From a virus (taxonomy: Duplodnaviria > Heunggongvirae > Uroviricota > Caudoviricetes): DNA of 27,291 nucleotides. A program made the position numbers and the translations under genes. The DNA is taken from positions 64,001 to 91,291 of the IMG/VR virus record IMGVR_UViG_3300031994_000051. One strand, given 5' to 3'. The stretch's first letter is position 1, and each line of letters begins with the position of its first letter. Shown here piece after piece: positions 15,310 to 22,640 of this stretch. Under the pieces are notes generated by a model. It did no database searches. It saw only the letters and a list, made by a program, of their open reading frames with translations, and was not told the DNA's origin.

Positions 15310-15731
15310 AAAAGGGAAGCGGATCGATCGCGGCTGTGTACTTGGGATGGGGACCCTCCAGCCCAACTGTTGTTAACATGCGCAAGCCCGTCGGCGTTCT
15401 GGTATAATTGGGCGGCGCAATGGCGTAGCGGCGTTTCCGCTTCCGCTTCCCTTGATAGGTCTGGGTTGTTGGCTTGACAGGTGGCTTATTGGCGGGGGCG
15501 AATAGGTGTTGATCGTCCAATCTCGCGGCCATCCGTTCTTGGTTTCTGGGCCTGAAGTAATGGCATCTTTGCACCAGCAGGTCTCTAGATTAACCAGACC
15601 TTGTTTCCCGCTATTAGTTTATAGCATATAGGCCGATCGGCGGGTAATCAGCTTGCCGTTTATACCCTGCAGGGTTATCGTGAAGGGAACGGCCTGTTCT
15701 CCATCTGTGTGGGGCGGTTCCCTTTTCACAA
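15310..15731 (-). ncRNA. candidate ~420-nt multi-domain structured ncRNA, family unknown
   Basis: GC-rich island behind its own promoter; tiled by long-range stems (12 bp 15312-15323/15442-15453; 8 bp 15457-15464/15594-15601; 5' hairpin ~15680-15730); GCG-GAAA-CGC tetraloop on - strand. Confidence 0.6.
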
Positions 15732-15733
15732 TG

Positions 15734-15764
15734 CAAATATACGGAAATATTTTTTATCTGGAAA
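15734..15764 (-). promoter_or_regulatory. variant promoter (TTTCCAG-N10-TTTCCGTATATTTG)
   Basis: TATATTTG -7 box at 15734-15741; no TTG box; same architecture as the promoter at 21528. Confidence 0.75.
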
Positions 15765-18763: not shown

Positions 18764-20008
18764 TCAAAGGTTCAGTTTGAACACTTTTGGTGATACAACG
18801 TCACCTCTATCCCGTAAGCACATTAGCTGTGCATCCGAGATTACATTCCCTTTTCTCATCATTCCTATGGAACCGTTTATGTCGGCGTTAAGAATCTTTC
18901 CTGTGGATGAAACGAACAATCCTCTCTTTGTCCTCTTTCCCATGTACTTTTCATGGTGTTTCATATCTTCCAGAACTATATGGTCAACCTTGCTTGTGTA
19001 TGATTCCTCGACCGTTTCAACAACCAAGTCCGTGTATTTCAGAGCCTTGTACTTGATCTGCTCAATCAACGTGTTGAAAGGGATCTGCACGAAGTTCTGG
19101 TTGTTCCTTCTTCCGATGTTCACTTCCTGTTTCCATCCTTTGTTATGGCCTATAATGATCTTCTCCACACCGTTCCTGACACAGAAATCAACCAGTTGTT
19201 TTGACGCACAATGCAGGTAATGGTTTACCTTTGCGTTTCTTTTCTTCGTCAATCTCTGAATCCTCTTGCTTGTGTGTTTGTTGTTGCATTTTTCGAGTTC
19301 AGACTTGTACTCCACGAGTCTCTTGTTATAGAACTGGTTCATGGACTTCAGTGGTCTACCGTTAACGACGTATGAAAAGGGTTTGTCGTTTGAAGTTATA
19401 GCACACAAGTTATTTACACCTAAATCAATTCCTATGCAAGAATTTGAGTCATAGTTGTTCCTTATTACTTCCCTGTCTTCATATATGATGTTTATCTTTA
19501 TTTTGTCATAGTATTTCTGTATTGTGACTTGTCTAACATCTTTCAACTTTATCTGTCTTGGTACGAATATCTTGTAGCCAGAACAAGGTATTGTGAAAGA
19601 GTTTGTTTCTGGATCCTTCTTTCTGAACCTGCTTGAATCGATGTATATGATGTTATATTCCTTTGTCTTGTAAAGATAGTTCGGCATCTTCGGCCTGCCA
19701 TTGAACTTGGAAGGATTTTGTTTATATGATTGTGTCGCCTTGATCCATGACAGCCAGTTCTTTGCAACCTGTCTTACGACATATTGCTTGATGTTTATGT
19801 CAAGCTTTGATTCGGCAACCTTGCTTTCTGTCTTGACCTTCTCCCAGAGCTGGTTGTATGAATAAGTCTTTATCTTCCCTTGTTCCTTTGTCTCGAAATA
19901 CGCCTGCCTCTGGAAGTACAGGGCCTGATCATATATGGAAAGCGAATCAGACATCATACCAAGAAGCCTGATGTCGTTCCTTACCACTATGTTCCAAGAC
20001 CTGAGCAT
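18764..20008 (-). CDS. tnpB: RNA-guided endonuclease TnpB (IS200/IS605/IS607 family), no TnpA in window (414 aa)
   Basis: RuvC-I GIDLGVNNL; IIIGHNKGWKQ at the RuvC-II position; VEESYTSK; RuvC-III NADINGS. Confidence 0.93.
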   Translation of the reverse strand: MLRSWNIVVRNDIRLLGMMSDSLSIYDQALYFQRQAYFETKEQGKIKTYSYNQLWEKVKTESKVAESKLDINIKQYVVRQVAKNWLSWIKATQSYKQNPSKFNGRPKMPNYLYKTKEYNIIYIDSSRFRKKDPETNSFTIPCSGYKIFVPRQIKLKDVRQVTIQKYYDKIKINIIYEDREVIRNNYDSNSCIGIDLGVNNLCAITSNDKPFSYVVNGRPLKSMNQFYNKRLVEYKSELEKCNNKHTSKRIQRLTKKRNAKVNHYLHCASKQLVDFCVRNGVEKIIIGHNKGWKQEVNIGRRNNQNFVQIPFNTLIEQIKYKALKYTDLVVETVEESYTSKVDHIVLEDMKHHEKYMGKRTKRGLFVSSTGKILNADINGSIGMMRKGNVISDAQLMCLRDRGDVVSPKVFKLNL

Positions 20009-21208: not shown

Positions 21209-21239
21209 CAAAGATACGGAAAATTTCTGGAATGTGCAA
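21209..21239 (-). promoter_or_regulatory. Bacteroidota sigma-A-type promoter
   Basis: TTG-N20-TATCTTTG on - strand. Confidence 0.85.
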
Positions 21240-21274
21240 GAAAAATCCGAATTATTTTTCTTTGTCTGGATAAA

Positions 21275-21314
21275 CAAAAAAACCGATCGATCCTTTTGTG
21301 AACGGATCGATCGG
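21275..21314 (-). terminator. intrinsic terminator of the tRNA transcript
   Basis: 11-bp stem CCGATCGATCC/GGATCGATCGG then T7 on - strand. Confidence 0.85.
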
Positions 21315-21354
21315 AAAACAAAACTAACCTATGGAATAAAACCCCTTGATTATG

Positions 21355-21425
21355 AGCGACTTATGAGACTCGAACTCACCTTTTCAGAGTGGAAATCTGA
21401 TGTCCTGCCACTGGACGAAAGTCGC
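21355..21425 (-). tRNA. tRNA-Gly (anticodon TCC), CCA not encoded
   Basis: Full cloverleaf: acceptor GCGACTT/AAGTCGC, D GTCC/GGAC, anticodon TCAGA-TTTCCAC-TCTGA, T arm GTGAG-TTCGAGT-CTCAT; Gly identity G1-C2-G3 and U73. Confidence 0.93.
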
Positions 21426-21429
21426 GTCT

Positions 21430-21525
21430 TTGTCAAACCAGCGGATCCGCTGCGGCGTGCCAGCCGTGGAAGGAGGTGTGCGGAACGGCTGGCGGGCCGA
21501 TTGCGTCTTCACCGCTGCTTGACAA
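21430..21525 (-). ncRNA. candidate ~96-nt hairpin RNA co-transcribed upstream of tRNA-Gly
   Basis: Ends pair (TTGTCAA/TTGACAA plus CAGCGG/CCGCTG); perfect inner 9-bp stem GCCAGCCGT/ACGGCTGGC with a 17-nt C-rich loop. Confidence 0.6.
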
Positions 21526-21527
21526 TG

Positions 21528-21558
21528 CAAATATACGGAAACTATCCGAAACTGGAAA
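21528..21558 (-). promoter_or_regulatory. variant promoter (TTTCCAG-N10-TTTCCGTATATTTG) driving hairpin RNA and tRNA
   Basis: TATATTTG at 21528-21535; same layout as 15734-15764. Confidence 0.78.
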
Positions 21559-21608
21559 GAGTTTTTGGAAAAATTTTTCTTGATGATGATAATTGTTTTG
21601 TGTTAGAA

Positions 21609-21623
21609 GATCCCAGTGGGATC
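21609..21623. repeat. 15-bp palindrome GATCCCAGTGGGATC
   Basis: Exact copy ~50 nt upstream of the - strand tRNA promoter. Confidence 0.95.
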
Positions 21624-21671
21624 TTTTTGTCACGCCACGCTATGAATATATTTTGTTTTGTGTTGGCTGAA

Positions 21672-21705
21672 ATAGAAAAGGGATCGATCAAAAATGATCG
21701 ATCCC
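21672..21705 (-). terminator. intrinsic terminator
   Basis: GGGATCGATCA/TGATCGATCCC stem, TTTTCT on - strand. Confidence 0.8.
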
Positions 21706-21728
21706 CCATTGTTTGTTAATTATGAATT

Positions 21729-21968
21729 TTATTCTTTGGATGTTTTTGAACTTGACTTAAACAGACATGTTCCTATGATATCCAGAACAAACATTATTCC
21801 TAATGCCTTCCATGTTGTTAGGACAGGTGCAGATGACCAGAAGATCGGTGCGATCCAGTTCCAGAGAAGAGATGCAACCCATCCTTCCAGTATTAGTAGT
21901 CCAGCGATAAGAGCGATTACAACGATGCATCCGATTGCAGACCAGTCGCGTCTAAATAATTCATTCAT
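21729..21968 (-). CDS. small membrane protein (79 aa)
   Basis: Two hydrophobic segments. Confidence 0.8.
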   Translation of the reverse strand: MNELFRRDWSAIGCIVVIALIAGLLILEGWVASLLWNWIAPIFWSSAPVLTTWKALGIMFVLDIIGTCLFKSSSKTSKE

Positions 21969-22201
21969 TTTTGTTTATTTTTATTGTTTATGATTAGGTT
22001 TATTCCATATGTTATAAAACCGATTGCCAACAGATATGGCAAAGGTTTCAATGGATCGATCTGTTTTATGTCTTGGCTAAACAAATATAATGTTGTTTGT
22101 AATAACACGATACATCCATTAGTTATCAGACATACCATGATTACAGCGAACAGATCTAGCGCATATTCTATCCATGATTTCTTAGTTTCTTTTCCACCCA
22201 T
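21965..22201 (-). CDS. small membrane protein (78 aa)
   Basis: Two hydrophobic segments; ATGA overlap. Confidence 0.75.
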   Translation of the reverse strand: MGGKETKKSWIEYALDLFAVIMVCLITNGCIVLLQTTLYLFSQDIKQIDPLKPLPYLLAIGFITYGINLIINNKNKQK

Positions 22202-22640
22202 CTCTCTGTTCCTCCTGTTTTGGCTGTTGAATTGATTTGATATTCTTGAAATGTTCTGCGTTAATCTGATTGATCTTAATCTTCAGGAACTCATCCCATG
22301 CCGTTTCTGGTTGTGGATCGATCGAAAGCAGTCTGCCTCTCCCAGTCTTCACGAGCCAGACAATCATCTCAACAAGGTTCTGCATAGGATCTGGTCCGTT
22401 GAATATAGGGCTGACGCCTTTGTACCATATCCTGTCGCCAGCGAATTGGGATGGCCTGTTGAAGTTGTCTGGTATTGAGTCTGGAAGCATTTTGGATAAC
22501 GCGAGTCCAGACCATGCTATACCGAATGAGTTCTCCGTGTCCGCAGATGAAGCTGGTATGTTCCATTCCTGCAGCATGCGTGCCTGTCTAGGTGTCGTGC
22601 GCATAGCTTTCAGCTTGTTTTCTGTCGTTTGGTCTGCCAT
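22182..22640 (-). CDS. hypothetical protein (152 aa)
   Basis: First ORF after promoter. Confidence 0.8.
   Translation of the reverse strand: MADQTTENKLKAMRTTPRQARMLQEWNIPASSADTENSFGIAWSGLALSKMLPDSIPDNFNRPSQFAGDRIWYKGVSPIFNGPDPMQNLVEMIVWLVKTGRGRLLSIDPQPETAWDEFLKIKINQINAEHFKNIKSIQQPKQEEQRDGWKRN

Follow-up and report, generated by a model that had tools for sequence, protein, structure and literature searches.

A structured phage leader RNA upstream of tRNA-Gly with a conserved C-rich loop, a candidate antisense RNA against Shine-Dalgarno sites

In this study, we describe a structured non-coding RNA encoded immediately upstream of a tRNA-Gly(UCC) gene in a 27,291-nucleotide stretch of phage DNA (the window), which corresponds to bases 64001-91291 of a linear 91-kb virus record estimated to be 57% complete. 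The RNA is new, lineage-restricted and of a known functional kind, a phage-encoded tRNA leader where host ribosomes mostly ignore Shine-Dalgarno (SD) sequences. It probably acts on translation, because distant relatives keep its loop and rebuild the rest of the molecule. We tentatively favor a mode of action in which the C-rich seed in the loop pairs with SD sites and blocks initiation, as in RsaE/RoxS and the cuckoo RNAs, since both are likewise built as a variable scaffold with an open C-rich seed.

The record encodes DnaK, DnaJ-like and ClpX proteins as well as a clamp loader, and its close relatives sit on contigs of 308-310 kb; the source is probably a jumbo phage of rumen Bacteroidales. 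The window also encodes a 414-aa IS605 OrfB/TnpB-like protein at 18764-20008 on the minus strand (PF01385, PF07282 weak), which has a homologue with 78% identity in the related phage record G003. In that record, the region C1:89626-113133 (L212-L213) contains 38 tRNA calls, one of them with a CUA anticodon, and a tmRNA. An ORF near 110450-111450 of G003 may encode a Ro60/TROVE protein and lies beside a tRNA-like element at 110101-110162.

The leader RNA gene and its flanking signals

The first-pass annotation had placed an end-paired RNA 4 nt before the tRNA, and this was confirmed. The flagged stretch (21430-21525, minus strand) forms an end-paired hairpin of -45.9 kcal/mol (z -4.69), with 0 of 200 shuffles as stable, and the tRNA-Gly(UCC) at 21425-21354, the sole tRNA of the 91-kb record, begins 4 nt past its end. 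The features of the region are as follows.

21426-21523, minus strand: non-coding leader RNA of type A, an end-paired hairpin of 98 nt with its start placed from the promoter
21468-21484 (read 21484-21468), minus strand: apical loop of 17 nt, unpaired and pyrimidine-rich, UCCGCACACCUCCUUCC, with the conserved core CAYCUCC inside
21479-21470, minus strand: 10-nt match to the 16S tail, ACACCTCCTT, in the apical loop
21432-21438, minus strand: 3' strand of the terminal stem, paired with 21523-21517, with covariation between types
21526-21558, minus strand: putative sigma-ABfr-type Bacteroidota promoter, with the -7 element TATATTTG at 21535-21528 and a TTTCCAGTTTCGG box upstream
21354-21425, minus strand: tRNA-Gly(UCC) without an encoded CCA (ARAGORN and Rfam RF00005)
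21276-21314, minus strand: terminator-like hairpin and U-run, read from the sequence, which would close the leader-tRNA transcript
21678-21707, minus strand: terminator-like hairpin that would insulate the RNA gene from the upstream ORFs
21729-22640, minus strand: three small upstream ORFs (152, 78 and 79 aa), synteny markers outside the RNA

The Bacteroidota promoter consensus is TAnnTTTG (PMC7366714). Dozens of such promoters are present in the 91-kb record, and the same promoter lies immediately 5' of the RNA in all nine loci compared. The first-pass annotation had not noted this promoter. Given the position of the -7 element, the RNA most likely starts at 21523, which sets the length of the leader. 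The product of the 79-aa upstream ORF is a membrane protein (phrog_2169). As in a pre-tRNA leader, unpaired spacers of 5-6 nt (13 nt in L352) precede an intact acceptor stem, and the leader and the tRNA are computed to fold independently of each other; we infer that RNase P would cleave between them. Base pairing between the loop and the adjacent tRNA was considered and rejected, as cognate pairs were not the best. A second GC-rich non-coding candidate is located at 15310-15741 on the minus strand, preceded by the same promoter subtype (CCGTATATTTGCATTG), and its sense strand lacks CCUCC. Pairing of the loop with this 420-nt candidate (15310-15731) is not specific, because the energy is the same on both strands.

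No known family was found for the RNA when the Rfam membership proposed as a check was examined: Rfam 15 at E<=1 returned only tRNA matches for the window and, for types B and C (described below), only tRNA and chance matches far under the gathering score. BLAST against annotated phages returned tRNA fragments and short chance matches only, and IMG/VR pattern scans with the loop, the stem, or the promoter plus 5' end gave nothing or chance matches. A loop-plus-tRNA pattern gave 69 matches in IMG/VR, one of which was beside a real tRNA-Gly, that one a decayed tRNA. Twelve related phage records, mostly partial, yielded no homologue when scanned by a sequence-only model. Homologues beyond this phage lineage were thus not found in IMG/VR or the related phage records, and our literature search found no paper describing this RNA.

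Four scaffold types and their shared loop

A metagenome scan gave 49 matches with one true homologue, L160, which has ~88% DNA identity around the RNA site; distant homologues were traced through the upstream 152-aa and 79-aa genes. In every intact, contig-covered locus, a GC-rich structured RNA begins behind the shared promoter, and the RNAs were assigned to four types: A (98 nt; relatives L160 and L360), B (~310 nt; L342 and L352), C (~185 nt; L346 and L358) and D (~130 nt; L362 and L434). The RNAs of types B, C and D all beat shuffles in folding (z -1.8 to -3.9). Types B and D have a tRNA-Gly(UCC) downstream, and type C has no tRNA and its own terminator. The persistence of type C without a tRNA, ending in its own terminator, indicates that the RNA is more than a spacer.

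The type A relatives L160 and L360 have 0 and 2 substitutions in 92 RNA nucleotides, versus 12-14% divergence in the flanks (binomial P 1e-5 and 1e-4, respectively), and their tRNA differs at 4-6 of 72 positions. Both L360 substitutions fall in the terminal stem and preserve pairing. This low divergence points to purifying selection, and recent exchange may account for part of it, because the promoter region is well conserved too. The covariation and loop conservation that the first-pass annotation had proposed to look for among homologues are present in part. The terminal-stem strands are GUCAAGC/GUUUGAC, GUCAAAU/GUUUGAC, GUCAAC/GUUGAC and GUCGGA/UCCGAC, with both sides changing between types A, B and D, and in these three types the hairpin loop nearest the 3' end holds the core CAYCUCC unpaired (unpaired probability 0.86-1.0), but the pyrimidine loop of type C lacks CCUCC, and the RNA of type C has no advantage over shuffles in pairing with a canonical SD (P 0.98 and 0.50). 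Type D, the most distant (52% amino acid identity), keeps 11 of the 12 nucleotides of CACCUCCUUCCA (CAYCUCCUUCCA; P 0.03), and type B matches type A over the same loop at 20 of 28 nucleotides without a gap (P 0.03). Between the two type D loci, L362 and L434, the half of the loop with the motif stays the same, and the other half and the stem differ. Taken one type at a time, B and D reach modest P values (0.02-0.1), since C and A dominate the unpaired parts; the case for conservation is based on four independent scaffolds. From this distribution, the loop motif looks ancestral, having been kept in the three tRNA-linked types and lost in the tRNA-less type C.

Several features of individual loci were also observed. 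The type B RNA (L342:6115-6420 and L352:5972-6278) is multi-branched with G-poor single strands and appears to combine type C-like and type A-like modules, and one stem segment in L342 is inverted relative to L352. In type A, the first internal loop (21433-21513, minus strand) has a GAA bulge and then GA opposite GA, a kink-turn-like arrangement adjoining a U-U pair; the feature is missing from types B and D, and no kink-turn is claimed. In L343 (6060 onward), an IS200/IS605-type element with a Y1 transposase lies just upstream of the promoter position, and the site is interrupted. The RNA site is also interrupted in L359 (3978-4478), where an antisense ORF was called across it. The anticodon loop of tRNA-Gly(UCC) is UUUCCAC in the window, CUUCCAA in L160 and CCUCCAA, with C33, in L342, and L352 and L362 carry different tRNA-Gly(UCC) sequences at the same position. 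Evasion of anticodon nucleases may underlie this variation. Among the Gly codons of the phage ORFs, GGA is used most often.

The 16S rRNA tail, Shine-Dalgarno sites and candidate functions

The piece of 16S rRNA tail that had been noted in the 17-nt loop is indeed there and unpaired: the 10-nt match has a mean unpaired probability of 0.98 and a shuffle P of 7e-4 within the RNA, and ACACCTCCTT occurs once in the 91-kb record versus 0.22 expected genome-wide. The Bacteroidota 16S end given in the annotation was confirmed as GGCTGGAACACCTCCTTTCT in 120 genome loci, Segatella, Hallella and Prevotella among them. Only type A has the exact 10-nt match. Two further likenesses did not stand in the same way. 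CGGCUGG, proposed as a second 16S piece, is present in the stem (CGGCTGG at 21466-21460), but it is paired there (shuffle P 0.05) and missing from relatives, and the match to 16S helix 45 was rejected. The ACACC variant, regarded as specific to Bacteroidota, amounts to one base beyond the universal CACCUCCUU, and that base is G in types B and D. Neither is conserved, and both are probably chance.

An unpaired seed complementary to SD sites is present in types A, B and D, and we propose the following antisense mechanism. Transcription would begin at the RNA's own promoter, which is of host type, and RNase P would then cut the leader free of tRNA-Gly. The GC-rich scaffold with paired ends would keep the pyrimidine-rich loop open, and the seed in the loop is predicted to pair with SD sites of the GGAGG type, blocking translation initiation. 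Few Bacteroidales genes carry SDs, with rpsR, rplI, rplE and rplF prominent among them, and host ribosome synthesis would likely be damped. In the class Bacteroidia, strong SDs are found in 83% of rplI, 66% of rpsR, 54% of rplF and 48% of rplE genes, compared with 1.7% of all genes (PMC7797042). SDs were confirmed at these four genes in five Bacteroidales genomes, where the type A loop has computed pairing energies of -8 to -16 kcal/mol with their start regions, similar to the 16S tail, and pairs weakly with the SD-less rpsF and rpsH; this pairing indicates a possibility only, because any anti-SD sequence pairs with SDs. A perfect complement of 12 nt of the loop gave 8 matches in the five host-like genomes versus 7 for the control, with 0 at an obvious start codon, so that no extended, specific host target was found above chance level in these genomes. 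The annotation had offered a decoy for anti-SD-binding proteins and an antisense repressor, and the latter is the better of the two, probably aimed at ribosomal-protein mRNAs of the host and not at the phage ORF 10296 (39 aa), which does have AAGGAGG upstream as claimed.

The motif could instead imitate the 16S tail and occupy bS21, the bS21/bS18/bS6 pocket or another tail-binding factor, thereby freeing the ribosomal anti-SD or titrating bS21. We consider this unlikely, and weaker than the SD-site antisense explanation. Types A, B and D retain the bases equivalent to C1533 and A1534, which are mostly dispensable for pairing with the host SDs examined, and the variation in type D falls at position 1535, which faces the solvent, whereas A1534 stacks on Tyr54 of bS21 (PMC7797042). 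The anti-SD becomes free when pocket contacts are lost (PMC13000457), which also favors a mimic, and OLE RNA provides a precedent for bS21 bound through an anti-SD mimic (PMC12054373), although the site in OLE is an SD:anti-SD duplex and not an open loop. The pocket, however, also contacts U1541, C1543 and U1544. U1541 is matched in types A and D only, U1542 and U1544 are matched in none, and type B also differs at 1540-1541; of a ligand comprising A1534, U1541-U1544 and a terminal 3' end, the loops of types A, B and D thus keep A1534, and no loop has a free 3' end. The pocket is located on the assembled 30S subunit, where the tethered tail competes in cis. SD use by the phage is low (8 of 124 ORFs versus 1 mock), and rpsU, the presence of which had been suggested as a check, was not found within the incomplete 91-kb record. 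These points weaken the bS21/bS18/bS6 decoy.

A role unrelated to SD sites or the 16S tail is possible, if doubtful: the RNA may be a structured tRNA leader or scaffold, the C-rich loop of which serves stability or binds Rho, bS1 or a phage protein, its likeness to 16S rRNA coming from composition and shared ancestry. In all types, the unpaired regions are poor in G and rich in C and A, the lack of CCUCC in type C and the confinement of the exact match to type A fit such a role, and the conserved CCA after CUCCUU in types A and D departs from the 16S tail. Against it, CAYCUCC is unpaired and in the same register in three scaffolds that otherwise align poorly, and the type A match has the low shuffle P given above. 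It is improbable that the RNA is a decoy for a host defence ribonuclease cutting the tRNA-Gly(UCC) anticodon loop or another UCC-containing RNA. CYUCCA, the anticodon-loop sequence of tRNA-Gly, occurs in the loops of all three tRNA-linked types, type C lost motif and tRNA together, and relatives differ in the anticodon loop, variation of a kind that has been associated with anticodon nucleases (PMC10264068). Yet the loops, at 13-28 nt, are unlike an anticodon loop, which has 7 nt and a stem of 5 bp; such a decoy leaves the 5' CAY bases unexplained, and the co-loss is a single event. Least probable by far is a non-functional GC-rich sequence or a protein-coding antisense ORF. The 161-aa ORF on the plus strand (21234-21719) was annotated by a gene caller on a near-identical contig, but the tRNA overlaps it, L360 has no ATG for it upstream of the loop, type B does not contain it, and the antisense ORF of type D is unrelated to it. 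No ORF is conserved across the loci compared, which largely refutes the coding explanation, and an RNA is favored by the covariation in the stem and by the excess of conservation.

If SD-site antisense is the function, its setting would matter. In Bacteroidota, the ribosome keeps its anti-SD hidden and reserves SD pairing for a few ribosomal genes, and an anti-SD RNA, blunt elsewhere, would be selective for ribosome biogenesis in such a host. It is conceivable, at a rather low probability, that the phage RNA silences the few SD-dependent ribosomal-protein genes, including that of bS18, itself a component of the pocket hiding the anti-SD, or binds the pocket proteins, and in this way alters the choice of mRNA by host ribosomes. 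Such activity would represent an RNA route to translational takeover by a phage and would offer a ready reagent for probing the SDs of rpsR, rplI, rplE and rplF in gut Bacteroidales. The four natural scaffolds, one without the motif, form a built-in test series.

Comparison with known RNAs

GOLLD and ROOL are structured RNAs of unknown function found beside phage tRNA genes, a setting like that of this RNA, and they are far longer than the phage leader RNA. The P6 element of OLE RNA is similar in that a non-coding RNA carries a copy of the host 16S anti-SD (PMC12054373). The anti-SD of OLE forms a duplex with an SD-like strand within a large RNA, whereas in the phage RNA, which has 98-310 nt, all types with the motif keep it single-stranded, and bS21 binding by the phage RNA is hypothetical. 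RsaE and RoxS of Firmicutes have C-rich regions that block SD sites (PMC4409812), and the phage RNA shares with them a C-rich seed that can base-pair with G-rich SD sites; it differs in having a single seed, predicted targets only, and no sequence or Rfam match to them. The cuckoo (RSs0680) sRNAs of Alphaproteobacteria are alike in having variable stems and an open anti-SD-like loop as the main conserved sequence (PMC4615179). Their loop motif, CCUCCUCCC, is similar but not identical to CCUCCUUCC in type A, UCUCCUUCC in type D and CCUCCAACC in type B. The cuckoo RNAs (RSs0680/ar14) consist of two to four adjacent hairpins with the motif in each, whereas the phage RNA presents one motif loop on an end-paired scaffold. 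Unlike cuckoo, it is encoded by a phage, as the leader of a tRNA, and would act in a host with ribosomes that mostly ignore SDs.
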